From: Amphiscolops sp. MND2022 | Taxonomy: Eukaryota | Length of the DNA: 64,000 bases | NCBI GenBank assembly: GCA_964187785.1 | Contig: OZ076409.1 | Coordinates: 75,642,001 to 75,706,000 of the forward strand | Reading direction: 5' to 3' | Part shown: in pieces, positions 8,001 through 62,400 of the stretch | How positions within the stretch are numbered: the first letter of the stretch is position 1 | Layout of the letters: each line of letters begins with the position of its first letter | Position numbers and translations under genes: made by a program | Notes under the pieces: generated by a model | The model's input: only the letters and a program-made list of their open reading frames with translations | Databases searched by the model: none | Told to the model about the DNA's origin: nothing

Positions 8001-8165
8001 CGTGCAAAGTTATTTTTTACCCCCTCTGACTCAACTATAGCATGTACGTAATGAAACCAATAACACCTTCAACTGTTAATCAACGCCCACCGTCCGTAGG
8101 CATGCCGAGGCATGCCTTTCGACGACGCGCGCCAAAAACAATATAACGGCGCCACCCGCTTCTGG
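5096..8165 (+). mobile_element. 3070-bp unit carrying ~1.9 kb of sequence unique in this window (~6200-8070)
   Basis: Starts with GTG after CTAG (5095) and ends with the hairpin module and CTGG (8162-8165). The interior is not repeated elsewhere in the window. Confidence 0.8.
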
Positions 8166-40700: not shown

Positions 40701-43700
40701 TTTTTTGCGTTTGCCGATTTATCTCTGCCGTTTTTTGCCCAGATTTTTTTTGAGACCCTCTCCTAAAGACCTCCCCTGGCCGGTTTACCTCCCAGCAAAA
40801 CAATTTGGCCCTAAATACGAAGTTTCAGCGTTCTAGCATTCCCGGGCGAAAAGTTGTGGGACTTAGAAAATTTTTTTGGAAACGCAAAATGTGTAAAGTC
40901 AACTTCTGGCCTCCCAAAGTCAAGGAACTTCCACACAACTAGTATTGCAAGTGAATGCATGTGGAGAGTACTTGAATAGACGAGGAAAATGAGCTGTAGA
41001 ACGTCTCTCTAGCTTAACCTGACGTTGACTTATGACCTTTTGAGTGTGAGCTTGCTATGCGAGAAAAAATGCAAAACATGAAAATGGAAGCAAAGTATCG
41101 TCGAAAACCCATCATAAGATGTTCAACTCATCCTAGAGCGGTTTATTTACAGTTGTTTAGTAGAGCAACACCATTCATGATCATGTGACCCATTTTTATG
41201 GGGAATGAGATTGTCTTATTCATCCGATAGCCCAAAGCAGTTGAGTACATTCCATCTCACCTCCGTGTGAGATGAGAATGTACTAGCTAAAGTCCAGGTA
41301 CTACAGCCCATATTGGTTTTATGCGACGCTCTGTATGCAAATGAGCATACTTGAAATTTTTTTAGCTGATATTTTTTTAAACTGCACTTTGACTCTGACC
41401 TGACATACTGAATATTTAGTCCTTATAACATACACATAATTAACGTCAACGCCCCATCCTTGCATCAACGCCCACCGTCCGTGGGCATGCCGAGGCATGC
41501 CCTTCGACGACGCGCACCAAAATATTCCCCGAGCGCGTTAGCCTAGGTGGCCGTGTCTTTTCGACGTGCTTTTGCATTGAGGAGTGGGTAGGGCCCCGCG
41601 ACGACCTAGAAGAATTGGATGCTCACCGAAACGTGCAGAATTCTACGAGATCTCATAGTTTGAGCCATACGATTTTTCTGAAATTTGGCATGTGGCCTGG
41701 AATTGGTGAGTAGGTAAAACGTGTAGAAGGTAATTTTTCCCAAATTCCACTGTGAGAGGAGATATGGGCAAATAACGGACCCAAAAATGGGGAAAATGCA
41801 CTTTTTTCAAGTTTGTCAGCCAATATCTCATTTCGAGGTGCCCGTAGCGTTCCGCACGTGGACATCAATATTGCTCAGCGCTGTTGGAGGAGTGCGTGGA
41901 CAAATTTTGGTTCAAATCGGACTGAAACTTGGCGAGAAATTAACGGTTTTTTGGGCGTTTCCGGGGTAAATTTTTTAACGGTCCAGCTTATCTTTGCCAT
42001 TTTTTCGAAAATGTACATGCCTAAAGGCCTCCCCCTGGCCGAATTTACTCCCAGCAAACCCATTTGGCCCTAAATACGGAGTTTCAGCGTTCCAGCATTC
42101 CGGGGCGGAAAGTTGTGGGACTTTGAAAAATTTCAAAATTTTTCAAAATTTTTTTTTCCGTTTTCCGGGCCCCCCAATGAAGGGGAACGACACCCCAACC
42201 AGTATTTTGAGTAAATTCATGAGGAAAGCCCATGTTTAGAGGAGAAAAATGCCGTTTAGAACATCTTTTTATCCTAAATTGATGTTGACTTATGATCTTT
42301 TGAGTAGCGTATAACACGTGATCACAGTAGTGAAAATCCTAATTTTCAATAATTTTCAAACAATAACGCATGAAAAGAACCTGGAAAAGGTTCCGATGGG
42401 TCAGTTGGGATGTCTGAAGCATGTGTACATTCCCGTAGTGTATAGCGGAGGTATTTGGGACTTATTAGAAATTGTGATAAATTTTATACAAGTCTTTGTT
42501 TCTCTTAGAATCTTATGCCGTTGAGTACATTCCATCTCCCTTTCAGGGGAGATGTGAATGTACGTTTGCCAAATGCCTTGTAACGTTCACAATTTTGATG
42601 GATTCAAATAGTTCAACAAGTGTGATTTGCGTTTGCCGAACCACTGCGACAAAATATCCTAAATCTATAGCGAGATTGAATAGTTTTTGTCTTTAGTGTT
42701 TCTTCTTGTATAGCCGACTTCCACATCCAAATATCAACGCCCACCGTCCGTAGGCATGCCGAGGCATGCCTTTCGACGACGTATGCCAAATACCCAATGC
42801 CACGCTGTCATTATCGCTAGGTGGCCGTGTCTTTTCGACGTGCTTTTGCATTGAGGAGTGGGTAGGGCCCCGCGACGACCTAGAAGAATTGGATGCTCAC
42901 CGAAACGTGCAGAATTCTACGAGATCTCATAGTTTGAGCCATACGATTTTTCTGAAATTTGGCATGTGGCCTGGAATTGGTGAGTAGGTAAAACGTGTAG
43001 AAGGTAATTTTTCCCAAATTCCACTGTGAGAGGAGATATGGGCAAATAACGGACCCAAAAATGGCAAAAATGCACATTTTTCAACTTTGTCAGCCAATAT
43101 CTCTTTTCCAGGTGCCCGTAGCGTTCCGCACGTGGACATCAATATTGCTCAGCGCTGTTGGAGGAGTGCGTGGACAAATTTTGGTTTAAATCAGACTAAA
43201 ACTTGACGAGAAATTAACGGTTTTTTGGGCGTTTCCGGGGTAAATTTTTTAACGGTCCAGCTTATCTTTGCCATTTTTTCGAAAATGTACATGCCTAAAG
43301 GCCTCCCCCTGGCCGAATTTACTCCCAGCAAACCCATTTGGCCCTAAATACGGAGTTTCAGCGTTCCAGCATTCCGGGGCGGAAAGTTGTGGGACTTGGA
43401 AAAATTTCAAAATTTTTTCAAAAATTTTTTTTCCCGTTTTCCGGGCCCCCAATGAAGGGGAACGACCCCCCAACCAGTATTTTGAGTGAATTCATGTGGA
43501 AAGCCCATGTTTGGAGGAGAAAAATGCCGTTTAGCACATCTTTTTATCTTAACTTGACATTGACTTATGACGTTTTGAATGTGATGTTAGGATATATGAA
43601 GCATGTTAAAAGTTGAAGTTTTGAGTCTTTATCTCATCGGAAAACCATTGAGATACAAGCAGTTTTGCTAAAAACGATTTTCATTGTAGGTTAGCAGAGT

Positions 43701-44102: not shown

Positions 44103-46096
44103 GTGCGGGGGGGTAACCCCAACAAATATATTGGAGGATTCGGGTAGGGTCCTGAATCCGATTTCAACTCTAATAGCTATCGATAGGAAATCTTGCAAAA
44201 ATTTCGGGATCTCGTGATCTAACCATAGGATTTTAAAGTTGGAGCGGCCCCCACCAGATTTTCCGAAAATTAGCGCCCCCCACCGGGTTCCATACCCCGG
44301 AAAATTTTTTTCTGGCCACACGGGCGACCGTTAGGGTGTCATTTTAGGGGTAAAATTCATATTGGTCCATATAACTTTTTTCCTGTTGTTTTAAAAGTTT
44401 GGGAACCCTACTAAAGGTTTTTTGACCATGTTGCAAGGGCTCCGGAGGTCCAAACCAAATTTTTCTATCTTGAAGCTATCTCCAAGTACCCCCCCGCTCA
44501 AACCGTTATTTTTCCGGAAACGCAGGTTTTTGACCCGGAAGGAGTCGTCTGAGCGCGGGGTCGTTAGGTGATGTTTTGGGGACGGCCTTGAGACAAAGTG
44601 GGGGACATGTAGTTTGCCAACCTCAGTTTACCCCCCGGACGGGAAATGACCGTTATATGAGCGGCAAAAATGTCCCCCTCCACGTTTTACCGCTATTTCC
44701 GGTGTGAAGGAGTGGGAGTAGCGCGTCGGGTGCCATATATCAAAAGTAGGTTTAGACAAGGATCTATCGGAAACATGTGGTTTGGGACCCCCTGGACCAA
44801 CCCGTTAGCAGGAAATGGGGCTTCCGGCCCGTTTTTTTACGGTTAAAAACGGAAAATGGGCATTGAGGGGTAAATATCTCGTGAACGCGTGGAGCTACGG
44901 TGTCCTTCACTACTACAAGGTTTCATACCCATGATATGGTGCGTTCAGGGGGGCAAACAGATTTCCGCTATCTATCACCGTTACGGACTTGGCCCCCCAG
45001 CCTAACCGTTAAGTGACCGGAAATGTCATATTTTGAGCCCAAAGGGTCGGTCCCAGCCAGGGAACGTTAGGTAACTTATTGTAGTACTCATTGAGACGAG
45101 TTGGGGGACATAGTTTCAGTCACCCCCCGTTACCCCTTAGGACCGGAAATGACCGTTATGTGAGTAAAATTGCCATTTTTGTCCTATTTGAAGGGCATTT
45201 AGATGCGGAAGGAGTGGTAATAGGTGCTTGGACACTATATGAGGTAAGGGAGGACGTGAGGCGAGCATTCAGACATAACCGTTATGTTGACCCTAAAGTC
45301 CCCCTGGTACCGTAAACGACCGGAAATGGTCTAATTTTGTGCTTATAGAGTACAAATGTTTGGTTTTTTATGGAGCAAAGTACAGATTATGTGTTTCCAC
45401 GGTCTGCAGTAGTGAACATATTCATGAAAACTTGTGGGGGGTAACGGTATATAGCACCGGAAGTCAAAACAGTTGGACACAGGATAGGCTTTTTGGTTTT
45501 AAAACGTCTTTAGGCGTAGTTTTGTGGGTTGAATCGTCGTAATATCAACTATAATGGAGTTTGTTTGGAAATAAAATTTTATCACATTAGTTTCAGGGAC
45601 CTCCAACGCTTCAGTCAACAAAACCGTTACCTTTGATAGCCTTTCAAGTTGGCCTGGTGTCAACTTGGAAGGGCTATCTTTCATGAATCGTGAAACAAAA
45701 TTGTTTTCAGGTACCTTTGTATTGCCTTAGTGTCAATTAGAGCTTCATCAAGAGTTTACCAATGACAAAAACTATGTCGTCTTACCGTTATTAGGAAAAT
45801 AGTGTGAGAAATCTGTGACGCACTTTCATTTTTCTCTCTCGTATCTTTGTCTAAATACCCTGGAAACAAATAATCGATCAATTGTTGTTGACTGAAACTC
45901 AATATCCATACTAAAGATTACCACAATACTGCTACGTTTTATAATTAAAGCTGAAACCGCACCTTACCGTTGCATGAAATTCAACCCGACGCCACATACC
46001 AACGTCAACGCCCACCGTCTGTGGGCATGCCGAGGCATGCCCTTCGACGACGTATGACAAATCCATATCAAACGACGCCCGTACATGCCGGGCTAG
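44103..46096 (+). mobile_element. Long non-autonomous unit, 1994 bp (GTGCGGGGGGGTAACCCC head family)
   Basis: Same termini but a different interior, rich in ACCGGAAAT and CCGTTA motifs. Homologous to 60743-62736 and to the partial unit 1-1121. Confidence 0.88.
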
Positions 46097-49000
46097 GTGC
46101 CGGTGTTTTTTTACACAATGGGGGAAGTTGCGCGGTTGGGGAGGGTCCCTGACGCGCTTCCGTGGTATCGGGTCTTTCAACCGATGAAAACGACATAAAA
46201 AATTGGGATCTCGAAAACTAGCCATACGATTTGGCTGAAATTTGGCACACGTACCCCCCTCGGCACGGTGAAGATGATTCCCTACTGACGTTTTTCCCGC
46301 TAAACATTTTTTGTTGACCAAAATAACGGTTTTTGGGGTAAAATTTTCAACTTTTTTTAAATTTCATCTTATATCTCGCCACGGGTACACGCTAGCGCTT
46401 CCAAACCTTGCTGACGAAAGTTTGCAAACTGTCTCAGGAATGCTGTGTGAAAATTTCAGCTCAATCGGACTTGAACTCGAGGAGATATAGCGTTTTTCCG
46501 GAGCGGGGGGGTTTCATTTTTCTAACGGTCCAGCTTATCTTTGCCATTTTTTCGAAAATGCACTCGCCTAAAGGCCCCCCCTGGCCGGTTTTATTCCCAG
46601 CAAAACCATTTGGCCCTAAATACGGAGTTTCAGCGTTCCAGCATTCACGGGCGAAAAGTTGTGGGACTTAGAAAATTTCAAAAATTTTCAAAAAAATTTT
46701 TTTCCGTTATTTGGGCCCCCAAAGTGGGGGAAAAGACCCCCCAACCAGTAAAGCAAGTGAATGCATGTGCAAAGCCCTTGTTTAGAGGAGAAAAATGCCG
46801 TTTAGAACGTCTTTTTATCTTGGCTCAACGTTGACTTATGACGTTTTGAAGGTGATGTTTGGAGGTGTAAAGCACGTGAATAGTAAACGTTATGAGTATT
46901 TATCTGATCTGGAAGCCATTGAGATGCAATATGGTTTGCTCAAAACGTAATTCATGGCAGTTTGGCAATCAATCAACACCCTTTGTTGTCGTTTGACATA
47001 CTTTTTTGTTGTTATAATGAAAAATTTTGTGTATTTATTCATTTTTTCTCATCAAATAACTTGAAACAGTTGAGTACATTCCATCGCCCCCTTCCGGGGG
47101 AGATGAGAATGTACTCGCAAAAAGCACCGAACTACGGCCCTTACCTTCCCGAGCTACGCAGTATAAGGATTACATATTGGTTCCGACATTTTCAAGAGTT
47201 AAATCTTGGTAATCTGTCTGGATATGCAGAAAAATCAGCACGTGCCTTTTAATACCAAGTTGCTCACAACGACATTTATTTTATATCAACGCCCCCATAT
47301 TTATCAACGCCCCCCGTCCGTGGGCATGCCGAGGCATGCCCTTCGACGACGTATACCAAGATATGTTCGAGCGCGTTAGCCTAGGTGCCGGGATTTCTAT
47401 TCGTTCAAGGATGTTGCGCGTGTGGGTAGGGCCCCTGGCGCGCTCTTTTATTTCGGGTACACCTACTCCAAATTCACGATGTGATTTCGACGATCTCGTA
47501 AACTAGCCACACGATTTGGCTGAAATTTGGCACACAGCTCCGTTGGAACATTGTAAGAACAAATCCCTACTGACGTTTTGCCCGCTAAACATTTTTTGTT
47601 GGTCAAAAATGCGATTTTCCGACAAAATTTTTGACTTTTTTTTCTTTTTCAACTCATATCTCGCCACAGGGTTACGCTAGCGCTTTGCAACCTATGATCC
47701 TTTTTTGTAGGGCATTGCATGTAGAACACGTATGCCAAATTTGGTGGCGATCGGACTTAAACTCAGGGAGATATAACGATTTTTTAGGTGCATTTTTTGA
47801 CATTTTTTGCTTTTGCTGATTTATCTTTGCCGTTTTTTGCCCAGATTTTTTTTGAGACACTCTCCTAAAGACCTCCCCTGGCCGGTTTACCTCCCAGCAA
47901 AACCATTTGGCCCTAAATACGAAGTTTCAGCGTTCTAGCATTCCCGGGCGAAAAGTTGTGGGACTTAGAATAATTTTTTGGAAACGCAAAATGTGTAAAG
48001 TCAACTTCAGGCCTCCCAAAGTCAGGGAACTTCCACACAACTAGGATTGCAAGTGGATGCATGTGGAAAGTACTGGGATAGACGAGAAAAATGAGCTATA
48101 GAACGACTCTGTAGCTTAACTTGACGTTGACTTATGACAATTTTAGTGTGAGCTTGCTAAGGGGTCCGAAAGTCAAAAATTGAAAATTGAGTTATTCCAA
48201 AGCAAATACTCCTTTATATAGGCTAATTAGGTATCAGTAACGTGAAACACGGTTGTACGGAGCGATTATTATCATAGGCGATACGGTTCGTTCAAAAAAA
48301 TGTCCAAAAATTTTTTCTCTTTTTTCGTAGGTTTTTTGTCTAGGATTTTTTTCTTTGGTTTTTTCCTTAGGTTATAGGTGTAGGTTATAGATTAGGCTTT
48401 TTCTAAGGTCCTGTTTTGCTTTCCCTGTTCACTGCATAGTTTGTTTTTAGTGGCAGAAGAAGACGACGACGACCAAGCATACGAGTTTTTCTTTTTTTTT
48501 CCTTGGGTTTTCTTCGGGTTAATGGCTATCCCGAAACCAGGTGCTCCTGCTCGAGGGCTTCTCGGGCGCTGGTTTCGTGTATGGGGCTTTCCCCCCCAGT
48601 AGGTAACCTCTGCCCAAATTTTCAAACGTCCCTCGTAATTCGCATTTTGCCGGTGTCTTTTTTTTACGGGCGTTTCGTCGAAAAAGATAGAATTTTTCTC
48701 GGAACCGGCAAAATCGGAAAATCAATCACAAAATAAACGACGTCGAGAAATCAATCAGACTTAACGGCGTCCAGTTGCTACAAAGAAGAAGTACAGATTA
48801 ACCATGCTTCAGTTTCAGGTGCCAATCAATCAAGCTCAAGATGTCTTTTTTTGTAACTTATTAAATAGTCCATAAAATTATGGAAATTAGGAAAATTTTC
48901 AAAGGTTGGTTTTTTTTTGAAATTTAATGCAACTTATTAACATATGTGCCAAAGCTTTTGAAAGCATTAGGAGAAATCAATATAAAGTAAACCAATATGC

Positions 49001-49966
49001 AGTTTAACTGTTCTAACTTCCTTCAGTTTTAGTTCACAGATGAAGATTCGCCGTAGCGATACGTAACGTTTTTTATCTAAATCGAATTTGCGGAGACTCA
49101 ATCTGCCTATCGTTCGCACGGTCGTTATTGAGCATAAATTACGCTCATTGAAAAAGTGCGTGATCAGCGTCGTTCAATTTTTACGTGTAATTATCATAGG
49201 TGCCCATATGTTAAATTGTAAGAATAGAGGTAATAGGTTTTCAAAATCCGGCTCATCAGAAGTTAGCTTGCGGCGTTATGCTGAAGGCCCTTCTGATGAT
49301 GCTATGTCCCCCCTTTTTTAGTGGGTAACCTATGCCCAAATTTTTTTCCAGCAATTTTTCCCAGCATTTTTGTTTTTTGTGAGTCTTAACCAAAATAATT
49401 TCTGATACATATTTTTGATTAAATATTACTTCTTAAAGTAGCTTTTCATTGAATGGTTTTAATACAATCAGAATTGTTTTTCCTTGTAAAGTTTTTTTGT
49501 AATATGAGTTTGTAACTGATGTACATGAGAATGAATTCCACCAATAAAAGACTCGAAACCTCTTGTACTGTATGTTTGATGTATGTTTATTTTATACTGA
49601 GAGTCAAGTAGGACATTACGTCTCTCGATCAAATCATAGATTTTCTTCGCTCTTTTATTTCGTTAATTGCTATTTTCCAAGTGGAACCGCTTCACACATT
49701 TGATTTTGCAAAGAAACATTGAACAAAGGTATTGTTTTAGCATATTTAGAATCAAAATTGAATTTTTCACGTTTGAAAGATTGTAAGATTTACAAGTTCT
49801 CTGATTTTATCCATCGTCTAAAACTTGATTGACTCGATTTTGGTAATTGTTCCAGTGGCGCTTCAACTATTAATTCGATTTCATTAGCCAATTCGGTTGA
49901 TCCGTATCAAATTTTAGTCCCAATGAGATACTGAAATGTTCAATTTCGTTTCATATTTTCAGGGAT

Positions 49967-52900
49967 ATGCCTCCAAGGAGAAATCGGAGTGTTAGAAACA
50001 AGTGCTCCCGGTGCCGTGTGTTTATCCCTCAGTCTTCGACTTTGTGTGCCAGTTGTGCATCTTCCTCCGCCGAGGTAACTCATGACAACGAAGACAGCAG
50101 CAGTGTTTCTATACCCAACGAAGACAACCCTCGGAACATAGTTTACCCTCCTCGTTGTACATTATGTGGATTACATGAACAGTCACAAGGCCAACTTTGT
50201 TGTTTTTGCTGTCCTGTTACTTTACCCGTTTGTACAGATGCAGAATGTCAAAAGTGCCGAAGAATTACCTGTTCATCACTGAATTCAATTTCTATGGCAG
50301 ATGTAAAGCAGACCGCGTTTGGTTGCCGATTACCGGGAGAAGCATCTGATTTTGCAAGACTGTGCAACGAGTGTACTCATTACGCAACACATGGCTTCCG
50401 ATCGCCATGGAGGAATATTTGGCCATGCGTCGTTTTAGATTTCCTCAGTGGTAAATATAATGGAATTGCTGATGGAAAACCATTCCATAAAGTGTTGCCT
50501 ACTTCTATTTTGGAACAATATCAACATCTGTTGCAGTTTAACACTGATGAAAAAGAGACTGTTTTTGCTGACCTGACACACAAACTGCTGGAATTCAAAA
50601 GTTTAAAACAAAACCTCAACATTGATGGAGTGCAGAAAGCCCATAACAAGTACAGTTTTCCAGAAGTTCGCTGTCCTTTTGGTTGTACTGAGTTCGTTGG
50701 CGACACGGGATTAATACCCTTGCAATACTTTCTTCTGACGTTAGACAAAAACTTTGCTTTTAACGGAATGAAGTGGAAAAGGCGATTACGTTGTGTTCGA
50801 CCAGATTGGTTGACCCCATACAATCACAATGATGCCTTCAACGTAAGACCACACATTGTTGTCGACGAGAAACAAGGACTGTGTCTTGCAACCTGTAAAT
50901 TCCACAACGGGGGATCGCACCAGTTTTTCGTCCATCCACCTACAAATCCCACTGGCAGATTACCCTCGAAAAATGCAGATCGTCTTGGTCCAGCTACAGT
51001 TAGTTATAACTGCTACAAACCAAGCAAGCCCAATTTTTCCACTCACACCTTTTCAATGGGTGTGGCTAAGGGTAATTTCTCCGGAATTAGTTCGACCACA
51101 ATTGCCTGTAAGCGAAGGTGGGATATCGCATTTGGTGAAGATGACGTCGTAAGAGAGTCTCTTTGTTCAAACAAACGACAGGATATAAAACCGCTGTTAC
51201 AAAAACTTGTGCACAAAGGAGAGTTATCACAGAATCTCTTTGATAGCATTACATCAATTGAAGGTTTGCCTGACGATCAAACAATTCTGGAATGTTTGAA
51301 GACTGCTACATCCGTCCCTTTGGAGTTAGCTCTTGCATTAAAGAAAATTCAAGAAGAAGGATTAAATGTAAACTATTTTCCGGTATTCTCCCATCCTTTC
51401 ACAAAATACGGATGTGATCCACCTGACACAGTTGTAAACCAGTCAATGCCGAAATATTTATGGATTTATGCTGTAATGTTTGCTTTGAGTTGCAACTTCC
51501 ATTTGTCTCTTTTGAAATTCATTTCAACAGATAGTGCCTTCAAAAATGTGTTCCATTTTATGCTGATTAATGATGGTAGACTGGCTGATAAAAAGAAACG
51601 AGAACTTGCAGAGTTCCTTCAACGTTATTCACAAGATCCTAGTTATGACATGGTTGACAGTTTGGAACAATTGCTAACAAACATATCTTTCGTCAAACAC
51701 TTCAATGTAACTGACAGAGAAAGTGTTGAATCAATTTTGAAATCTCTGACCGATGACAAAATTGTAACTTTCATTACCAATGCAAGGAGAAGAGACGATG
51801 GTTACTTGCCGGATAGAGTGGTAACTACGAATGGGTCAACATCATACGAACTACGATCAATTGCTGTCACTGAGGGCGGCAACGTAAAAACACTCGTTAG
51901 ACATGGTAATGAATATAATTGTTGGTGGATATACTCTACAGCTCATGAGACTCCATCAAAAATGGGTCTTGAAGATCTGGTGGAGATGAACAAATTTCAT
52001 TCTAGTTGGTTGTCCTGCCATTACGAGATCATTGGTTCAGTTGACATGCAGAGAGAAAAATACCAGTACTTGGAATATTTAGGAGGCCAAGGACGATTCA
52101 TTTGTGACGATCATCATGTCCCTCTTACAGTAGCCAGAAAAAATACTCCGACTCTTTGTTCGTTCAGTACCAGCTGTCAGCGAAAACCCGCTTGGAATTG
52201 CCCGTCGGAGAACTGCTTGTCGTCAGTCTGCCGTACTCATTTCGCACAACACCAGCTTAGCAATGAACGTTTCTTTGTCAAATGCCCCACTTCAAATTGT
52301 GACGTTGTTCCTCCACATTCTGCTGAATGTTGTGATGATGATGTAGTTGTTTCTGAACCCGAATCAGACTACGATGAATTTTCTTTTACAAATTTCACAA
52401 CCGACACTGGTCATGTTGAAAATATGACAAATTGTTGTGCTACTGATTCTGGAGACATGCCGTCAGTCGTTGACAGTGTTGACACATCAATTCCTGCCCA
52501 TATTTTGCTAAACACTGATTGTCATGTACTAGAAAGGAAGAACTACAGAATTGACCGTTCCAAAACAAGTTCTCGATTTTTACAAAACATTGTCGCAAGA
52601 TCATCTGGTAACTCCATCCCTCTCATTTACCCTGACGCAGCACTCTTCCCTACACATTATTATCATGAACAGACGGACAATACTATTACTGGCGCTGTTC
52701 CGGCTCCTCTCTTTTGTGATAAACAGAGCAAACACTTTCTCTTTGCAAGCATTGAGGATCATAAGCGATCAGCTGTTCTGAACCCAAATCTTTTGCAATC
52801 AACCGACGTTAGAAGTATTCAGACATCTTTCGACACCGTGCTGAATAAACGTCTCACTTTTTCCGATACACGTTTGGTTCTCAATCGAGGATTCCAAGAA

Positions 52901-55900
52901 GTGACTGTGAAGACTTCCAAATCAATAACTCCAACTAATCCAAAACTTCAATTTGATCATGCTGATTCTAGAGTACGCGTAAATGAATTGGCCGCATTGT
53001 TGTCTAAAGAACCTGCTACATTTTTTCTGACACTCACTTGTAACCAGAAATATCACTTTGGGGTAGCACCAATTTTTGAAGCTATTGAAAATCGATTCAA
53101 CAGAAATAATAAACAAGAGTACGAGAGAGCAGTTCAAGCTGAGATGGTGCTACTAACAAGAGCTTGGTATAGATCAGCTGAAGCTTTAATGGAATGGATC
53201 GAAAAATCTCCCGACCAACCACTTGGAACTGTCACCAAAATTTGGTATCGCTATGAGTTCCAGTCTACCAAAGGGAACTTACCGCACATTCATTGCGTCA
53301 TATGGACAAAAGAAAGCAAAGCTGAATTACAACACAAGGTTTCATGCTCTGGATCATCAGCTTTATTCGAATTGAAAAAAATAGCAGCTGAAACAAATGT
53401 AATTAATAGTGATCAAGTTTTCGATTTGTGGACTCAACTGATGACAATCCAAACTCACTCCTGCGAAAAGGCAAACTATCGCTGTCACAAAATTGTCAAA
53501 GACGACGGGTCAACAATATGCAGAGTTCCCCGTTACCCGCATTCAAACCGATATTCCTGGAGAAAAGTCCCATCAAGCCATTCGGAAGAAGCATTGCAAG
53601 TTCTTCATTACCTTGACTTGGCCACACCCTCGAAGTCTCATGACGATACCTTCGAAGTTTCAGAGAGTCTTCAAGGAGGCAAATTCGAATACCCAGCTTC
53701 AAGTGACGAGCACCTTTCCCCTTTTAACCCACTTGTTTTCATCATTACGATGTCTTCGCAAAACCTTCAATTGTGTGACGAATACTTATCTGCAAGGTAT
53801 ATTGCAAAATATGCAGCAGGGATCGAAGAACGAGCTGATGCACGTGTTGATCCGGTTTCCTTCAATGAAATTAGAATTCACACTAAAGGAATTAATAATT
53901 CGAAAATTTCCAGTTGCCGTATCAAAGAAAAAAGTACAGATAGAAAAACAATTGTTCAGATAATTCCTCTCGTTGAAACTGTTTGGTGGTTATTGAGTTT
54001 CAAATATGTTCACAGTTCTGTTTCCTTCGTTCATTTATCGACTCTTGAAAAGTCAGAACGAACGTCTTTCATCACACCCAGAAAAAATACAAACCCAACC
54101 CAGCCGTTACCTTTACATGTTACAAAAAGTTTCACTTTACCACTGTCGCGCCAATTCACCCAATCACAGTTGTTGGTTTTAAAAGATTCTATGACAAGTG
54201 AGCATTCTAACTGCAAAATGACAGTTTTTAGCGGTAGGCCACCAGCGCTTTTGTGTGTTGATAACCCTCAACTGTATTTCACTTGGTTCAACAGAGTTAA
54301 TATTCGGCATCCCCAGGATACATTGAATCATGATGTTAACAATTCAAAATGGATAGACCTTTTCGGACGTGCTGTACACTTGAGACGTTGCTATCTTGAT
54401 GACTTTTCCACTTATGTCAACAATCTCAGAAGAGAGGGACATATCAACTTGTACCGATTCGATGAAGATACATCGATTTTGTTTCTACAAAACGACTGTT
54501 TGGGATTGAAAACAATAGACGATTCTCCAGTTCAAGTTGTGACATCAAACATTGTGCCAAATAATCGTCGAAAATTTTTGGTGCACTTTGTTCTATCTAA
54601 CGGGAAGTTTGAGACAGAACCAGATCTATTCAATCATCCTAGCATGATGGAGGTTTTCATCAACTGCAAGTTACTGCCATCAAAAAGTTCTTATACACAA
54701 CAAGATGCCTGTGATCTAGTGAAATTTTACGTTTTGTCGGAACTCAAATACCTTCCTGGGGCAAGCAGATCGTTCGATCGTCATTTGTTATGTTGTTACG
54801 ACTTGATGACCAATCTTGTTCTTCATAACCAGATTCATTCCGAAGCTTTGCCCTCAACTCTTCATTCAGAAATAACCGAAAACGCTGAAATTGATTACAT
54901 CCTCCACAGTAACGAAAAACGAGAGCGAAGTGTTCAAGGTTGCCTCTTAAATCCAGCTTTGATGCCATTGCAACCACACAAAGATTCTTTCGTCGCAGCC
55001 ACCCGCAGTAACCCGTTTGTGTACAGTTTTCCGTTTCCTCGAGCTCCCGGACAGTCGGACGAATCAAACACTTTTCAACAACGTGTGTTCAACGGGTGCA
55101 TTCAGAAATTGACTAACTTTATTGAAACAAAAGACGGTTTCGTAAAACATCAATTGTTTTTGGGGCGTCCGGGAAGCGGCAAAACACTCATCTGCACAAT
55201 GATATATCTGGAAGCTGTGGCGAAAGGTCTCAATTGTGCAGTAACTTGTCTAAGTGGAGAGCGAGCCCAACAACTCGGTGGCGAACATGTCCACAAACTA
55301 TTCAAGTTCAGAGTAAACAAAATACAGAATCCCGAAATAATGGCTTCCCAGAGTTTGAAAAGTCTTCTCAAGGATGTCACAAGGTTCACTGAGCTGGAAC
55401 GCCTTGACGTACTTTTTATTGATGAAGTGGGCCAGCTGAATTCTGAATTGATGATAGCTATGGAAATTGTTCTACAATCTGTACGAGAAAACAAACTGCC
55501 AATGGGAGGAATCTTCACAATCCTAACAGGAGATCCGAAGCAATTGCGCCCTCCACAAGGATCATTGACATGGTTGTCACCGAAGATGCTGACAAATTTT
55601 GATTTCCACTACTTTAAACACTATGTTCGAGCAAAGCCTGGATTGTTGCGACAGATACTGACTAAATTAGATGAACTTGATATCAGCCCAATCGAAGCAT
55701 CAAATATTGCAAAGGAAATTGTAGCCAATTGTAATATCCATTCAACTTGGGACAATGTTGGTGACAACTTTGACATGCGTGTTTTCAGCACACGAGCCGC
55801 TGAAAAACAGGCTGTTACACATCATTTTGAAAAAATTCTGGCTGACCAAAGTTGTGTAAATGTTGTGTTAACTGCTAATGATGAAGTGAGTTCTACTGGT

Positions 55901-56950
55901 GCATCAATTTGGCGTCCGGCAGGTGACATTGAACAAAAAATCATCGATTCCACATCCATCACTCCCCGACAACTGCTCTTGTATAAGAAAGCGCTTCTCA
56001 GATTTACAGCCAACCTCCCCAACATTCAGGCTAGGCAAGGACAATTGTGCCTAATTTTGGAAATACCAACCGAAACAGCATCTTCTCTGGACGTTTGGAT
56101 TGCACCACCAGGTTGCCGGACCGTCACAAATTTCGACGAAAATAACCTCATTACATCTGGTTGGCGCAAAGTCTCTATTTCAAAAGTGTTTACACCTATA
56201 ATGACTAACAACAACAAATTCCTAAGGAGATACTCTTTCCCTCTCAAGAACTATGTGGCATCCACTATTCACAAATGCATTGGTGACACGTTCCCAAAGA
56301 TTGTTACCAAAGTTTCACTTACGGACAAACATTACAAAATTTGGGAAAAAGAGCAACTTCTTGTGTTGTTGAGTAGAGTCAGTAAGCTCGACGACATAAC
56401 GTTCGTAGGTGAAGAACACGAAATAGAATTAACTTTAACTGCTGCCATTCAGCAAAAGTCCTGCTGGGGAACTTTCATCAATAACCTTCTGGAAAAATTG
56501 GCCTGTACTCCCTCTGACCTGACGCCGCCAACACTCAACCTCCTTTCTTCAAATATTGTACCTTGGAACATTGTCTTACCCGAAGACAATGTAGGCTTTG
56601 TGTATCTTCTGGTAAGCACGAAGATTCCGAATGTTTATTTCATTGGAGAGGCTCTGGAAATTCGGCGAGAATTGAAAGTTATCAACTCTGGAAATGGCGC
56701 ATCCGAAACACGCCCAATCGAACGAAGGCCATGGGCAATCTTAGCATTTGCAACAGGTTTCAACACCGAAGATTCTTCCAGCAACAATACGCAAAGAAAA
56801 TCGCTTGTATCGAAGATGAGAACGCAATTTACTTCCCTTGGATTAAACTTCACCACCGTGGAATTGTTTGAAACGTTCAAAGAATCAACGAGAACATATG
56901 CTGACGAACGTGATCTAAATTTGAGAGTTATCCAGTGTGGCAGTGTTTAG
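49967..56950 (+). CDS. Helitron-type RepHel transposase (2327 aa): Cys-rich N-terminus, HUH/Y2 replication initiator, Pif1-family SF1B helicase, C-terminal GIY-YIG-like domain
   Basis: Uninterrupted ORF. Rep motif I FFLTLTCN (aa ~1019, nt 53021); motif II YRYEFQSTKGNLPHIHCVIW with HUH = HIH (aa 1107-1109, nt 53285); motif III YIAKY (aa 1278-1282, nt 53798). Helicase motifs: Walker A GRPGSGKT (nt 55163), Walker B FIDEVGQL, GDPKQLRP, HYVRA, FPLKNYVASTIHKCIGDT, VLLSRV. C-terminal GFVYLLVS...YFIG...NSGNGA..T...RRPW from nt 56594. The ATG lies just after a pyrimidine-rich AG (49961-49962), suggesting a 5'UTR intron. Confidence 0.95.
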   Translation: MPPRRNRSVRNKCSRCRVFIPQSSTLCASCASSSAEVTHDNEDSSSVSIPNEDNPRNIVYPPRCTLCGLHEQSQGQLCCFCCPVTLPVCTDAECQKCRRITCSSLNSISMADVKQTAFGCRLPGEASDFARLCNECTHYATHGFRSPWRNIWPCVVLDFLSGKYNGIADGKPFHKVLPTSILEQYQHLLQFNTDEKETVFADLTHKLLEFKSLKQNLNIDGVQKAHNKYSFPEVRCPFGCTEFVGDTGLIPLQYFLLTLDKNFAFNGMKWKRRLRCVRPDWLTPYNHNDAFNVRPHIVVDEKQGLCLATCKFHNGGSHQFFVHPPTNPTGRLPSKNADRLGPATVSYNCYKPSKPNFSTHTFSMGVAKGNFSGISSTTIACKRRWDIAFGEDDVVRESLCSNKRQDIKPLLQKLVHKGELSQNLFDSITSIEGLPDDQTILECLKTATSVPLELALALKKIQEEGLNVNYFPVFSHPFTKYGCDPPDTVVNQSMPKYLWIYAVMFALSCNFHLSLLKFISTDSAFKNVFHFMLINDGRLADKKKRELAEFLQRYSQDPSYDMVDSLEQLLTNISFVKHFNVTDRESVESILKSLTDDKIVTFITNARRRDDGYLPDRVVTTNGSTSYELRSIAVTEGGNVKTLVRHGNEYNCWWIYSTAHETPSKMGLEDLVEMNKFHSSWLSCHYEIIGSVDMQREKYQYLEYLGGQGRFICDDHHVPLTVARKNTPTLCSFSTSCQRKPAWNCPSENCLSSVCRTHFAQHQLSNERFFVKCPTSNCDVVPPHSAECCDDDVVVSEPESDYDEFSFTNFTTDTGHVENMTNCCATDSGDMPSVVDSVDTSIPAHILLNTDCHVLERKNYRIDRSKTSSRFLQNIVARSSGNSIPLIYPDAALFPTHYYHEQTDNTITGAVPAPLFCDKQSKHFLFASIEDHKRSAVLNPNLLQSTDVRSIQTSFDTVLNKRLTFSDTRLVLNRGFQEVTVKTSKSITPTNPKLQFDHADSRVRVNELAALLSKEPATFFLTLTCNQKYHFGVAPIFEAIENRFNRNNKQEYERAVQAEMVLLTRAWYRSAEALMEWIEKSPDQPLGTVTKIWYRYEFQSTKGNLPHIHCVIWTKESKAELQHKVSCSGSSALFELKKIAAETNVINSDQVFDLWTQLMTIQTHSCEKANYRCHKIVKDDGSTICRVPRYPHSNRYSWRKVPSSHSEEALQVLHYLDLATPSKSHDDTFEVSESLQGGKFEYPASSDEHLSPFNPLVFIITMSSQNLQLCDEYLSARYIAKYAAGIEERADARVDPVSFNEIRIHTKGINNSKISSCRIKEKSTDRKTIVQIIPLVETVWWLLSFKYVHSSVSFVHLSTLEKSERTSFITPRKNTNPTQPLPLHVTKSFTLPLSRQFTQSQLLVLKDSMTSEHSNCKMTVFSGRPPALLCVDNPQLYFTWFNRVNIRHPQDTLNHDVNNSKWIDLFGRAVHLRRCYLDDFSTYVNNLRREGHINLYRFDEDTSILFLQNDCLGLKTIDDSPVQVVTSNIVPNNRRKFLVHFVLSNGKFETEPDLFNHPSMMEVFINCKLLPSKSSYTQQDACDLVKFYVLSELKYLPGASRSFDRHLLCCYDLMTNLVLHNQIHSEALPSTLHSEITENAEIDYILHSNEKRERSVQGCLLNPALMPLQPHKDSFVAATRSNPFVYSFPFPRAPGQSDESNTFQQRVFNGCIQKLTNFIETKDGFVKHQLFLGRPGSGKTLICTMIYLEAVAKGLNCAVTCLSGERAQQLGGEHVHKLFKFRVNKIQNPEIMASQSLKSLLKDVTRFTELERLDVLFIDEVGQLNSELMIAMEIVLQSVRENKLPMGGIFTILTGDPKQLRPPQGSLTWLSPKMLTNFDFHYFKHYVRAKPGLLRQILTKLDELDISPIEASNIAKEIVANCNIHSTWDNVGDNFDMRVFSTRAAEKQAVTHHFEKILADQSCVNVVLTANDEVSSTGASIWRPAGDIEQKIIDSTSITPRQLLLYKKALLRFTANLPNIQARQGQLCLILEIPTETASSLDVWIAPPGCRTVTNFDENNLITSGWRKVSISKVFTPIMTNNNKFLRRYSFPLKNYVASTIHKCIGDTFPKIVTKVSLTDKHYKIWEKEQLLVLLSRVSKLDDITFVGEEHEIELTLTAAIQQKSCWGTFINNLLEKLACTPSDLTPPTLNLLSSNIVPWNIVLPEDNVGFVYLLVSTKIPNVYFIGEALEIRRELKVINSGNGASETRPIERRPWAILAFATGFNTEDSSSNNTQRKSLVSKMRTQFTSLGLNFTTVELFETFKESTRTYADERDLNLRVIQCGSV

Positions 56951-57019
56951 TTCATTTGGGTTTACAAATATTACACTGTAGAAGTCTCTGAGAATGGACG
57001 ATAGATGAAGCATGTGAGG

Positions 57020-57050
57020 TTGCCCCGGCCACGCAGTGAGCCGAGGGCAA
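57020..57050. other. GC-rich stem-loop ~70 bp after the RepHel stop codon
   Basis: TTGCCC-CGGC-CAC-GCA-GTG-A-GCCG-A-GGGCAA; the arms are complementary. Confidence 0.6.
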
Positions 57051-57510
57051 GCTTTATTCAAACTATAGATGAACATCCTTTTTTGTTGAAAAGTTCTTTG
57101 ATTATACTTTGCCTTTGCTCATTTTTTCAACGTTCCTTTGTAAATATATACTGATAAAATTGTCACCCGTTGATAATATTACCAGTTGACACTGAAGTTG
57201 ACACCAGTCAAGAAAAAAAATATTTATCTGACTGGAACAAAAAAAGACAAAAAAAACAAGATGGCAAGATTGTTGAAACAGTTCAATTCTTCAACTTCGA
57301 TAATCTTTTCCTTAACATATTTTTACCATCACGTGGAGGGAAATAGAAAAACATTTCTACAGTTAATTAGTTCGAAAGAGAAAAATTAGACAGTATTTAG
57401 ACGCAGTAGTGATGTTGTACATCGAAAGAAATGAAAATGTGTCGAGAAACATAACTTTATTGTGTTTTTAGATAGCTTTGTCTTCAATCGAGACTGAAAC
57501 AAGATTCAAA

Positions 57511-58901
57511 ATGCCCATCATTAATAAAGATTTGTCGGCAGATGAGGCAGCCACCAGAACAATCAGTAAATTAACAACGTGTGAACTCGATGAAGTGATG
57601 GAATCTAATGCAACGGATCGGAAGTACATGATTTGTACATTGCTTTACGCCAAAAAATGTGTGAAATCAGTATCGTATTTTAAACTAACGAATGGACAAA
57701 AGCAAAAACAGGAGGCTACATTTAACCGTTTTGTCCTTCTGGGAGTGATCGGAAAAGAGAAAGTAATGGCAATATTTACCTACACCCAACTAGAAAGCGC
57801 GGAGTTGTTGCGTTACTGTTCTGCATTACAACCAGGAAATGCGTGCGCCTTAATACGCCCTAAATTCGATAACAAGTATATGGGATCATCATCCACTACC
57901 CCAATCATACTAACTTCTGAGCCACTTGTGCCTCTGAACATCAAGAATTACCCTGATGTCAGCTGTCCAAGAATTGTATCATCACCGGACTTTCAACATT
58001 TCTACATGAAAACGAAAGATTTGAAGCTCGATAATATAGATGCCATTGGAAACGTGTGCAATGGGACCTTCTGCGATGGTCAACCGAAGGGCGACTGTCC
58101 TTGTTTAGAGGTCGACAACCGGAAAAGCAGCTGGATCATTACTGCGGATGTGAAATGCAGTGGGTTGTATCACTCATCAAAAATACGATCAAAACGATTG
58201 ATAACGGTATTCGCTCCCAAATGTAAGTCGGCGGACCCTAACAAAAGAGAATTTGATGTCCTTGATTTGGGCGATTGTATTGAAAACTGTGTTGAAGCAG
58301 TAAATGCCAAGAATGGATGGGAAATTTTCGGTTGGGTGAAACCAAACGAATCTGCTCTAGAGTTTACAAACTATGAATGCGACCTACACATTATACATCT
58401 TCAACCTATCGAAATTACAGATGTAGAGTCAGGTAAACCTAAAATTCAAATATTTATTTTTCCAGTTTTTACTTTCTTTTTTCGCTAAAGTTCTAATTAA
58501 TTTTCGACCAAAATATGTCTAGCAGAATCAAAATATAAATTTTAACAGAATCTCAAACACAACGTTTAGTGTTATTAACAATTGTTTTCGCAAAAGACAT
58601 GAACATTAATTTCACCTTGAACTATTATTTTACAACTTGAGACTAAAACTTACAGTCTTTCTTTTTTTCCCAACGTTATTTTTAAGATGACCGATAATTG
58701 ACAAATGATAAATATACTTCAGATGCATACAAAGCCTTGCAGTATAAGTTGCCCGAAACATCTGCCCCAGAAGTCGAAATGCCCGTCATAGCAACTACAT
58801 CAGGAACAGCTTCGGTTCCAGCAACAGCTCCAGCAACAGCTCCAGAAACAGCTCCAGCAACAGCTCCACCAGATGAACAAGCAGCTTCGGTTGAAAGATG
58901 A
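57511..58901 (+). CDS. Second gene of the autonomous element; predicted two coding exons (57511-58432, 58723-58901), ~366 aa, function unknown, CxGxxCDGQ-x4-CxC motif and Ala/Thr/Pro-rich tail
   Basis: ORF open from 57472, after acceptor-like TTTTTAG (57471), with first ATG at 57511. Donor TCAG|GTAAAC at 58433 and acceptor TACTTCAG| at 58722 are both phase 1 and join in frame (...ITDVES-D-AYKALQYKLPE...). The unspliced read-through (IQIFIFPVFTFFFR) looks intronic. AATAAA at ~59133. Confidence 0.75.
58818..58868 (+). repeat. 12-bp coding minisatellite (CCAGCAACAGCT) x~4 encoding PATA/PETA
   Basis: Read directly in exon 2 of ORF2. Confidence 0.85.
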
Positions 58902-59344
58902 AAATCGCATTATCAACTACGAAAAATGCAGAAATCAAGAGAAGTGACAATGAGCAAAAAACATTGATAGATTTAAAAATCTCGAAACATTTTGATTCAA
59001 TAATGTTATAATGTGATCATAAAAAGATTGCAGAAAAAATAATCTTGAAACCGGTAAAAGATTATAAATATCGTATTGTTATGTTCCTTTAGTTCATATT
59101 CTTGAAATAATGTTAATTTGTTATTTTCAAGAAATAAAAATTCACTTTTTCGTTCCCACAAGAAACTTGAATAGAGTGTTCATAGAAAAAATACGTATGT
59201 TCATAGACTAGTCAATATTTTCAATACAAATATCTGAACTAGTCAAAATACTAATCTTTTCTTTGCTTTCACTCTGGTATGACATTTGCTAAACGTTTGG
59301 TCCTTACAACATACACATGACTAACGTCAACGCCACATACTGTT

Positions 59345-59434
59345 ACCAACGCCCACCGTCCGTAGGCATGCCGAGGCATGCCTTTCGACGACGTATGCCA
59401 AATACCATAAAACCGACGCGCACTCTCCCGCTAG
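59345..59434 (+). terminator. Helitron 3' terminal signal (GC-rich hairpin plus CTAG) of the autonomous element; an equivalent copy ends every unit
   Basis: AGGCATGCC-GA-GGCATGCCT at 59364-59383, flanked by CGTC...GACG; CTAG at 59431-59434. A hairpin followed by CTRR is the established Helitron 3' structure (rolling-circle termination, not transcriptional). Confidence 0.85.
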
Positions 59435-62400
59435 GTGCCGGGATTTCTATTCGATAAAGTATGTGGCGCGTGTGGGTAGGGTCCCTGGCGCGCTCTTGGG
59501 TATGGTGTTCACCAGCTAGGAAATAGGGGTCGATTTTTCGGGATCTCGTAAACTAGCCACACGATTTGGCTGAAATTTGGCACACGTATTCCCCTCGGCA
59601 CGGTGAAGATGATTTCCTACTGACGTTTTTCCCGCAAAATTTTTTTTGTTGTCCAAAATAACGGTTTTTGGGGTAAAATTTTGAATTTTTTTTAAATTTT
59701 ATCTTATATCTCGCCACCGGTTTAGGCTAGCGCTTCAAAACCCTGCTAAAGAAAGCTTGCAAACTGTCTCAGGAATGCGGTGTGAAATTTTCAGCTCAAT
59801 CGGACTTAAACTCGGGGAGATATAGCGTTTTTCCGGAGCGGGGGGGTTTCATTTTTCTAACGGTCCAGCTTATCTTAGCCATTTTTTCGAAAATGTACTC
59901 GCCTAAAGACCTCCCCTGGCCGGTTTTATTCCCAGCAAAACCATTTGGCCCTAAATACGGAGTTTCAGCGTTCCAGCATTCCCGGGCGAAAAGTTGTGGG
60001 ACTTAGAAAAATTCAAAAATTTTCAAAAAAATTTTTTTCCGTTTTCCGCCCTCCCCCCCTAGGGGAAAAGACCCCCCAACCAGTAATTTGAGTGAATTCA
60101 TGTGGAAAGGCCATGTTTAGACGAAAAAATTGCCGTTTAGAACGTCTTTATATCTCAACCTGACATTGACTTATGAAGCTTTAAAGGTGATGTTTGGACG
60201 TGTGAAGCATGTAAAAAAAGGAATTTTTTGATTTTATTTCATCAGAAAGTCATTGAATCACACGCTGTGAAGCCCAGAGCGTGGTTTCTAATAGTTTGGT
60301 ATCGTTTAAACGCATTTTGGTGTCTTTTTACTCTGTTTAAAAAACTTTTCTCCTGAAAATTAATAAATTTTGATTACTTTTCTTACTTTCCATTAATTTT
60401 TTTTTCTTATATTTTTACTTGAAACAGTTGAGTACATTCCATCTCCGTTCCCGGGGGAGATGAGAATGTACTCGCAAAAAGCCGCGAACTACGGCCCATA
60501 CCTTCCCGAGATACGCAGTATAAAGATAACATAATGGTCCAGACATTTTAATGGAGTTGTATCTTGGTAATATGTCTGGATTTGCAGAAAAATCAGCACG
60601 TGCTTTTTTATACCAAGTTGCTCACAACGACATTTATTTTATATCAACGCCCCCATATTTATCAACGCCCCCCGTCCGTGGGCATGCCGAGGCATGCCCT
60701 TCGACGACGTATACCAAAATATGTTCGAGCGCGTTAGCCTAGGTGCGGGGGGGTAACCCCAACTTTTTTCTTGGAGGAATCGGGTAGGGTCCTGATTCCG
60801 AGCTTAGTGCCGCCAGCTATCGTTAAAAACCCATACCTTTTAAACCCGATCTCGGGAACTAACCACGCCCCTTCTTTAATTTTTTGGCCCCCACTCACTT
60901 TTTGAGAGTAGATCGCCCCCCACTGGGTTCGATGTTGGGCAAAAATGGAGGTCATGGGTAACGGGGACCGTTAAGGGGTAACTCAGGGGGTAAAATTTTT
61001 TTTTGCGTCATATCTTTTCCCCCCGTGGATTTAGCGCTTCCGGTCAGCAGACAAAACCTCATGTACGTGATACGGGGCCTCCGTAGGTCCAAACAAAATT
61101 TTTCTATCATGCACCGTTACGGACTTGCCCCCCCCGGCCCAACCGTTATTTTGCCGGAAATTGCACTTTTTGACCGGGAAGGAGTCGTCTGAGCACGGAG
61201 TCGTTTGGTAATGTTTTGTAGTGCATCTGGAGACGTGTTGGGGGACATGTAGTTTGCCGGCCCCAGTTTACCCCCCGGACGGGAAATGACCGTTATGTGA
61301 AGTTTAAAAATGCCCCCCTTCAATTTTCCCCGTAATTTCCGGTGTGAAGGAGTGGGAGTAGGGTGTCGGGTGCCATATATCAAAAGTAGGTTTAGACAAG
61401 GACCAACCGGAAACATGTGGTTTCGGACCCCCTGACCCAACCCGTTAGCCGCTATTACGGTGATCGCCTCCTTTTTTTGCTGTCAAAACCGGAAAACGGG
61501 CATTGAGGGGTAAATATCTCGTGAACGCGTGGAGCAATCGTGTCCATCACTACTACAAGGTTTCATACCCATGATATGGTGCCTTCAGGGGGGCAAACAG
61601 ATTACCGCTATCTATCACCGTTACCGACTTGGCCCCCCAGCCTAACCGCTATGTGACCGGAAATTGCACTTTTTGAGCCCAAAGGGTCGATCCTAGCCGG
61701 GCAACGTTAGGTAACTTATTGTAGTACTCATTGAGACGAGTTGGGGGATCTAGTTTCAGTCACCCCCCGTTACCCCTTGAGACCGGAAATGACCGTTATG
61801 TGAGTAGAATTGCAATTTTTTTACCTTTTGAAGGGCATTTAGGTGCGGAAGGAATGGTAATAGGTGCTTGGACACTATATGATGTAATGGAGGTCGTGAG
61901 GAGAGCATTCGGAAGTAACCGTTACGTTGACCCCAAAGTCCCCCTGGTACCGTTAACAACCGGAAATGGCCAAATTTTGTGTTTATAGGGTACAAATGTT
62001 TGGTATTTTATGGATAAAAGTACCTGGAAGGTGTTTTAAAGGCCTCCAGAAGTGAACATAGTCATGAAACTTTGTGGGGGGTAACGGTATATAGCACCGG
62101 AAGTCCAAACCGTTAGTTACAGAATAGGTTTTTTGGTTTCAAAATGTCTTTAGGCGTAGTTTTGTGGGTTGAATCGTCATAATATCAACTAATACGGACT
62201 TTTTTCGGAAATAAAATTTTTTCACATTAGTTTCAGGGACCTCCAATGTTTCAGTCAACATAACCGTTACATTTTGATAGCCTTTCAAGTTGGCCTGGTG
62301 TCAACTTGGAAGGGCTATCCGTCTAAAATCGTTAATCAAGAGTGTTTTTGGGTAGGTATATGTTGCATTAGTACCAATTAGAGCTTCATCAACAGTTTGC

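Follow-up and report, generated by a model that had tools for sequence, protein, structure and literature searches.

An intact-looking Helitron-like element with an OB-fold partner gene in a composite array of units sharing one exact joint in Amphiscolops

A 64,000-bp stretch of the Amphiscolops sp. MND2022 genome (contig OZ076409.1, positions 75,642,001 to 75,706,000; hereafter the window) holds an autonomous, intact-looking element of a little-described Helitron-like lineage, embedded in a head-to-tail array of short units that probably arose by self-targeted insertion. The 12-kb element encodes a Rep-helicase transposase (open reading frame 1, ORF1; RepHel) and a second protein with OB folds (ORF2). 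It belongs to the Helitron-like elements (HLEs) in the broad sense because its HUH Rep domain, with two tyrosines, is fused to a Pif1 helicase. The array and the landmarks of the element are listed below, with a slash marking the boundary between units.

1122 to 62736, plus strand: head-to-tail composite array of 37 complete units, continuing past both ends of the window.
47385 to 59434, plus strand: autonomous Helitron-like element of 12,050 bp, from GTG at its start to CTAG at its end.
47385 to 48194, plus strand: 5′ terminal (left) region of 810 bp, common to the short units and including the conserved central block.
59262 to 59434, plus strand: 3′ terminal (right) region of 173 bp, common to the short units.
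59364 to 59383, plus strand: subterminal hairpin of 20 bases, with an 8-bp stem, a CGAG loop and a compensatory A-T for G-C at the stem base.
59431 to 59437, plus strand: 3′ joint CTAG/GTG into the next unit; an identical joint lies at 47381-47387.
36455 to 37732, plus strand: non-autonomous unit with the tail closest to that of the 12-kb element.

When the array is cut after CTAG, 32 units measure 1262-1316 bp and the others 1396, 1994, 1994, 3070, and 12,050 bp, and all five size classes share one joint. This joint reads CTRG/GTG in 38 of 38 cases (37 CTAG and one CTGG), comprises seven bases with no spacer DNA, and is flanked on either side by a drop in conservation; the joint pattern was counted 35 times in the window and never in 100 shuffles. 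No target-site duplication was found at the 38 joints, all of which lie between units. At 5% divergence the units form 23 clusters, and some units are mosaics whose closest relative changes near the conserved central block, as in 39019-40281, which has a head like that of 36455 and a tail like that of 40282. Among the 25 pairs of units that are more than 95% identical, a whole neighbor more than 95% alike was found in none upstream and in none downstream, and the 300-bp flanks adjoining these pairs are alike in 3 of 50 cases, the permutation mean being 3.6. Of the 25 pairs, 23 lose exact identity no more than 7 bases from the joint on the upstream side, and 20 on the downstream side. Tail-identical pairs (n = 30) have their own head in common in 23 cases and the next head in 4, and the Mantel correlation of heads with tails is 0.56 within units (reached in 0 of 2000 permutations) and 0.20 across joints (p = 0.013). 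Near-identical units are adjacent in 2 of 36 places, with 1.36 expected (p = 0.40), and identity does not decay with distance along the array. Since neighbors are unrelated and identity ends at the joint, we conclude that the mobile unit is GTG...CTAG and that copies arrived singly.

The 12-kb element shares both ends with the short units. The initial annotation had stated that its first ~800 bp follow the layout of the short units and that its last ~160 bp match the tail of unit 36455-37732. The first statement is borne out over 810 aligned bp, central block included, with 87.5% identity to unit 10759-12020, 85.3% to 40282-41546, and 76.0% to 36455-37732, and the second match in fact spans 173 bp (87.6% identity over 178 columns). 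The left terminal region carries a GGG(T/G)AGGG.CCC motif at about +40. The window has 39 copies of the subterminal hairpin, every one in the same orientation with respect to the CTAG downstream of it, and 4 of the 39 carry the double, compensatory change at the stem base.

Only two ORFs of at least 150 amino acids with an ATG start occur in the window, and both lie within the 12-kb element. The first encodes the transposase.

49967 to 56950, plus strand: ORF1, RepHel transposase, 2327 amino acids.
49967 to 52816, plus strand: Cys-rich N-terminal ~950 amino acids, kept within the clade, with no Pfam family at the cut-off.
52964 to 53836, plus strand: HUH Rep domain, with motif 1 at residues 1020-1026, His1107/His1109, and Tyr1278/Tyr1282; Helitron_like_N, E = 4.9e-8; first Atlas match 0.96.
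55064 to 56416, plus strand: Pif1-family SF1B helicase; PIF1, E = 1.3e-8; Walker A intact at residues 1733-1740.
56594 to 56836, plus strand: SLX1-type GIY-YIG domain, degenerate in this copy (Phe2225, Glu2235, Ile2239, Val2281).

The 7-kb frame had been described as uninterrupted, and 49967-56950 indeed encodes 2327 amino acids without a stop. The Helitron_like_N and PIF1 matches are both above the Pfam cut-offs, and Rep motif 1, the HUH histidine pair, the two tyrosines, and Walker A are all intact here; an alignment of 15 proteins shows little or no variation in them. A search with residues 950-2327 of ORF1 returned 58 proteins, 57 of them from one family of large RepHel proteins, many annotated with GIY-YIG; the remaining one is a canonical Helitron (E = 7.9e-4). 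The only named relative in the family comes from the tunicate Styela clava (28% identity). A 25-bp direct repeat (48598-48622 and 49320-49344, 92% identical, 722 bp apart) lies in the 5′ untranslated region (UTR) of ORF1.

Catalysis by SLX1-type GIY-YIG nucleases depends on conserved Tyr, Arg, and His residues and a metal-binding Glu. The family profile matches SLX1 structures, and the domain was detected in 12 of the 15 aligned members, ORF1 of the 12-kb element not being among the 12. At the corresponding positions of the 58 aligned proteins, 37 have Tyr, 30 Arg, 37 His, and 41 Glu, and because Phe, Glu, Ile, and Val take their place in this copy, its nuclease tail is probably inactive. The tail varies little among full-length members of the ORF1 cluster and is more decayed in a second subgroup (P0014-P0017, P0022, P0023, P0025, P0026, P0035); the comparison suggests that the nuclease was lost more than once within the lineage.

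Other full-length copies were looked for and found: of the 13 members of the ORF1 cluster, 11 are full length, and the proteins are 88.5-99.8% identical to that of ORF1. The two members at 99.8% identity would fit recent copying but may be alleles or haplotypes. Within the cluster, the Rep and helicase cores have 7-13 variable sites per 100 amino acids and most of the N-terminal 800 residues have 30-51, as expected under purifying selection. Distinct RepHel families (P0004, P0005, P0023, P0026, P0080, and others) are about 33-66% identical to ORF1, and the collection suggests many intact RepHel families in one genome. The claim that the 12-kb element is a recently active helper therefore divides: recent activity fits, and the family may plausibly act as helper, while this copy is at most a candidate helper, because no short unit comes closer to its ends than 87-88% identity and because many other RepHel families occur in the same collection.

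The second gene lies downstream of ORF1.

57511 to 58432, plus strand: ORF2 exon 1, encoding a tandem OB-fold, RPA70/Teb1-like, with a Cys cluster; the unspliced frame runs to 58488 (325 amino acids).
58433 to 58722, plus strand: probable GT-AG intron in ORF2, deduced from scores.
58723 to 58901, plus strand: probable last exon of ORF2, encoding a Pro/Ala/Thr-rich tail.

The spliced form of ORF2 (366 amino acids) scored 320.7 bits compared with 302.1 bits for the unspliced form, and was the best of 11 forms. There are 265 relatives at E ≤ 0.001, and a structural model built from an alignment of 101 relatives plus close homologs reached a predicted local distance difference test score (pLDDT) of 90.7, superseding an earlier model from 6 sequences (pLDDT 41). 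In fold searches the protein is closest to RPA, Teb1, and LEF-3; the best Foldseek match is an archaeal RPA (E = 5.7e-6), and comparison with Teb1 OB-A gave a Z of 8.8 and a root-mean-square deviation of 4.1 over 113 aligned residues. Pfam returned no family for ORF2, and a sequence search of the PDB returned no useful match. The modeled fold makes ORF2 a probable RPA70-like single-stranded DNA-binding protein. Of 19 RepHel loci, 4 (L001, L012, L016, L018) have an ORF2 homolog downstream of RepHel, most of the other loci ending too early; L004 has 4.6 kb of sequence 3′ of RepHel with neither an ORF2 homolog nor a joint.

Locus L001, from another sample, encodes a RepHel 32% identical to ORF1 and an ORF2 homolog; beyond these comes a joint of identical sequence, and then 60 bp belonging to another 5′ end. 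These 60 bp score 40 when aligned to unit heads (shuffle maximum 32). The L001 tail scores at best 46 with unit tails (shuffle mean 37), no clear likeness, and the subterminal hairpin of this family was not found in L001. A minus-strand match in L012 at 2887 was judged unrelated.

From the pattern of identities in the array, we consider it on balance likely that growth is mainly by insertion of single units at joints already present, which fits better than duplication of blocks or rolling-circle concatemers. By analogy with Helraiser, Rep would nick the 5′ end of the element, the helicase would peel off one strand, which the OB protein would coat, the subterminal hairpin would stop copying at CTAG, and the strand would close into a circle with the joint CTAG/GTG. 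For Helraiser, the available parts of two reports describe a required 5′ end, a 3′ hairpin that acts as terminator and whose loop is important, and the formation of circles (PMC4778049), as well as precise cleavage of the element's own junctions of right and left terminal sequences (PMC5876387). The step proposed here is that Rep would also nick the array joint and join the incoming unit there by strand transfer, since the array joint equals the expected circle joint in sequence. Such transfer between circle joint and array joint would give exact, same-orientation, duplication-free insertion of any family member, and recombination inside the conserved blocks would yield the mosaic units.

Several points weigh against this account. 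The 64-kb window contains no array end, empty site, or dispersed copy, and L001 alone, of 16 related loci inspected for 3′ sequence, has the joint with a following head, though most of these loci have too little 3′ DNA. The 25 near-identical pairs come from few families and are not independent, the joint pattern was drawn up after L001 had been seen, and the exact nick position within the seven invariant bases is an assumption. Unit order is also not fully random, as the across-joint rho of 0.20 (p = 0.013) indicates; the mean identity of adjacent units is 0.702 versus 0.681 (p = 0.057), and one pair has 216 upstream bases in common and one pair 130 downstream.

Two other histories of the array are unlikely but deserve weighing. 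In the first, the array would be a Helitron-derived satellite, an old rolling-circle concatemer whose units diverged and were reordered through unequal crossing-over and gene conversion, with the joint kept by descent from one founder. Tandem Helitron arrays are known from plants and bats (available parts of PMC5876387, PMC5148889, and PMC13404089), and mosaic units such as 39019-40281 and the weak positional clustering speak for such an origin. However, none of the 25 pairs lies in a duplicated multi-unit block, identity does not decay with distance and ends at the joint, units of 1.3, 1.4, 2.0, 3.1, and 12 kb are intermixed, and the joint was found again in the distant relative L001. A pure concatemer was rejected. 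In the second history, which we likewise regard as improbable, Rep acting at array joints would replace or amplify units in place, through nick-initiated conversion, template switching, or terminator read-through, while the elements otherwise jump to ordinary host sites. Joint-bounded identity and mosaics are both predicted by such action, and bypass of the terminator is documented for Helraiser (available part of PMC4778049); yet read-through should copy at least two units together, no such duplicate was seen, and the mixing of unrelated size classes in one chain is hard to explain.

The initial annotation had named the finding that would count against it, namely that the interior from 48.2 to 59.27 kb is a separate inserted element with termini of its own. 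No such termini were found: a second terminal motif is missing from the interior, and its edges show no long repeat, whether inverted or direct. The 5′ and 3′ matches are contiguous in no short unit and lie ~285 bp apart in 36455-37732, and the interior (48195-59261) has no match in the rest of the window by blastn or tblastn. Locus L006, whose RepHel is 29% identical to the ORF1 protein, has a 5′ UTR that aligns to positions 39-527 of the 12-kb element with a score of 146.5 (maximum of 39 in 100 shuffles), and the shared 5′ region is therefore the true left end of autonomous elements. Although the interior has no DNA in common with the short units, it is highly improbable that the 11-kb interior is a separate element inserted in a 1.3-kb unit or that the chain is an assembly artefact: the interior edges have neither termini nor a target duplication, ~285 bp of unit sequence is absent between the two terminal matches, L006 carries a homologous 5′ end of ~500 bp, the encoded proteins are those that rolling-circle termini require, and the joint is also present in L001, an independent assembly.

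The short units are non-autonomous relatives of the 12-kb element, and by their sequence layout each reads as a left end, a module with a strong hairpin, and a right end. The palindrome GAGTACATT is present in all 32 complete copies of the 1.26-1.32-kb units (31, plus a variant in 41547-42820) and was not found in the other four non-coding units (1396, 1994, 1994, and 3070 bp). It had been noted as lacking from the 12-kb element, and there its left arm has no match and its right arm a single lone match, with 1 mismatch, on the plus strand. One copy of the internal hairpin serves as an example.

37425 to 37467, plus strand: internal long hairpin of the 1.3-kb units (example), z = -6.6; absent from the 12-kb element.

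Across 15 of the 33 copies of this hairpin, 97.6% of cells are paired, and 2 pairs have two-sided changes. The ~290-bp 3′ module of 8 short units scores 25-30 when aligned to the interior of the 12-kb element, no better than shuffles (means 26-28.5). We rejected an origin of the short units as simple internal deletions of the 12-kb copy; the initial annotation had drawn the same conclusion from the missing palindrome.

Further features of the units were noted. The right arm of the palindrome and the bases beyond it repeat the start of the central block ~560 bp upstream (35607-35626 versus 36170-36190; likewise in most short units), a repeat that resembles, and might be, a duplicated binding site. 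Units 2396-3791, 5096-8165, 44103-46096, and 60743-62736 are non-coding and have only the termini and short motifs in common with the 1.3-kb units; no coding remnant was found in these four, and the ends of the two 1994-bp units are ~70% alike. The subterminal hairpin matches a p53-family double half-site consensus with 1 mismatch in 38 of 39 copies, and there is no other such site in the window. This likeness may be coincidence, because a palindromic terminator explains the symmetry and L001 is without the hairpin; no case of a p53-family site in a Helitron was found in the literature search.

Searches for relatives elsewhere gave little. Viral contigs contained no RepHel relative and no match to a Helentron motif, and one match to the joint pattern (L019) lies in unrelated surrounding sequence and was taken as chance. 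Genome contigs yielded one RepHel coding fragment of this lineage (L020 1-2512, 2.5 kb), without ends, in a contig of a bacterial metagenome-assembled genome, where it is probably eukaryotic contamination. Rfam gave no matches in 35000-64000, and no tRNA genes were found in the window or in 6 loci. tRNA-like stretches resembling short interspersed nuclear elements lie near RepHel relatives in L018 (about 100-410) and L017 (about 4270-4600), and ARAGORN calls no tRNA gene in them.

The accepted view is that Helitrons target dinucleotides and that tandem arrays of them are rolling-circle concatemers. We tentatively raise a broader possibility, for which the case is still short of probable: that these elements represent a third major Helitron-like lineage, with GTG...CTAG ends, an SLX1-type GIY-YIG tail, and an OB protein of its own, whose obligate target is its own end-to-end joint, for which composite arrays, possibly heterochromatic or centromeric, would be a safe niche, and which would have kept this habit across distant hosts. 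If so, the lineage would be a sequence-specific, duplication-free eukaryotic HUH integrase, and its insertion a novel way of building satellite-like arrays from mixed families. The window offers termini and a partner gene for the RepHel-GIY-YIG lineage, and target choice is directly testable, since the ends are defined, the two-gene element looks intact, and short substrates are plentiful. A literature search, with most subscription journals and Repbase outside its reach, found neither a description of such a lineage with termini and partner gene nor a paper on joint-targeted composite Helitron arrays. The available parts of PMC6431247, PMC12910113, PMC8788227, and PMC10288648 describe no such lineage. 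The accessible part of the HELIANO report lists 19 genomes with unclassified HLEs and, in Sphagnum, a single HLE2 family with GIY-YIG, and its supplements may include this lineage.

The groups HLE1 and HLE2 are taken here from the available parts of PMC11417382 and PMC13286980. Like HLE1 (Helraiser, wheat Xuan-Feng), the element has a two-tyrosine HUH Rep-Pif1 fusion, a 3′ hairpin and a CTRR end (here 37 CTAG and 1 CTGG of 38), non-autonomous partners with shared ends, and an OB/RPA gene downstream of RepHel (available part of PMC11417382). HLE1 insertions make no target duplication; the joints here, which show none, all lie between units. HLE1 elements start with TC, whereas here GTG follows CTRG in 38 of 38 cases and the invariant bases contain no TC; their hairpin of 16-20 bp lies 10-15 bases from the 3′ end, whereas the 20 bases here lie 36-53 before CTAG. 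HLE1 elements insert between A and T; the joints here, all of them unit-to-unit, are G/G. ORF1 further adds the ~950-amino acid N-terminal extension and the C-terminal GIY-YIG domain. By similarity the RepHel lies far outside the HLE1 transposases: between the clade and 17 HLE1 proteins the median score is 45 bits (range 25-73, best segment), compared with 1392 within HLE1 and 730 within the clade, these being similarity scores and not a tree; the helicase tree holds 32 clade rows without HLE1 and was not used for placement. The profile of the ORF1 family matches Helraiser in the helicase only, and ranks it below bacterial Pif1.

With HLE2 (Helentron, Helitron2, proto-Helentron) the element has in common a large RepHel with an extra C-terminal nuclease domain. 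Proto-Helentrons likewise combine HLE1-like ends with a non-HLE1 transposase, some Atlas neighbors of the ORF1 Rep region carry the HLE2 domain DUF6570, and the Sphagnum HLE2 HelenSM92 has a GIY-YIG domain. Unlike HLE2, none of 15 members has DUF6570 at E ≤ 0.05 and none has an AP endonuclease, no inverted repeat joins the ends of the 12-kb element among the 25 longest of 77 pairs, and the joints are G/G, in contrast to the T-T insertion site of HLE2. The distinction from HLE2 is drawn by domain marker, termini, and joints.

The target of the prokaryotic IS91/ISCR elements resembles their own end. They are also alike in having a HUH transposase and orientation-specific insertion at a short target (available part of PMC10288648), but they have neither a helicase nor a eukaryotic OB gene. 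Closest in arrangement are the tandem Helitron arrays of plant centromeres, bats, and Meloidogyne centromeres and the composite FoHelis, with head-to-tail joints and autonomous among non-autonomous copies. The plant centromere arrays are reportedly the subject of Xiong et al. 2016. Tandem and self-inserted Helitrons are known, and the available parts of the reports account for such arrays by rolling-circle concatemer formation or by occasional self-insertion (PMC5148889, PMC13404089, PMC12001565). In the Amphiscolops array, instead, many families alternate singly for at least 61 kb, always at the same exact joint.

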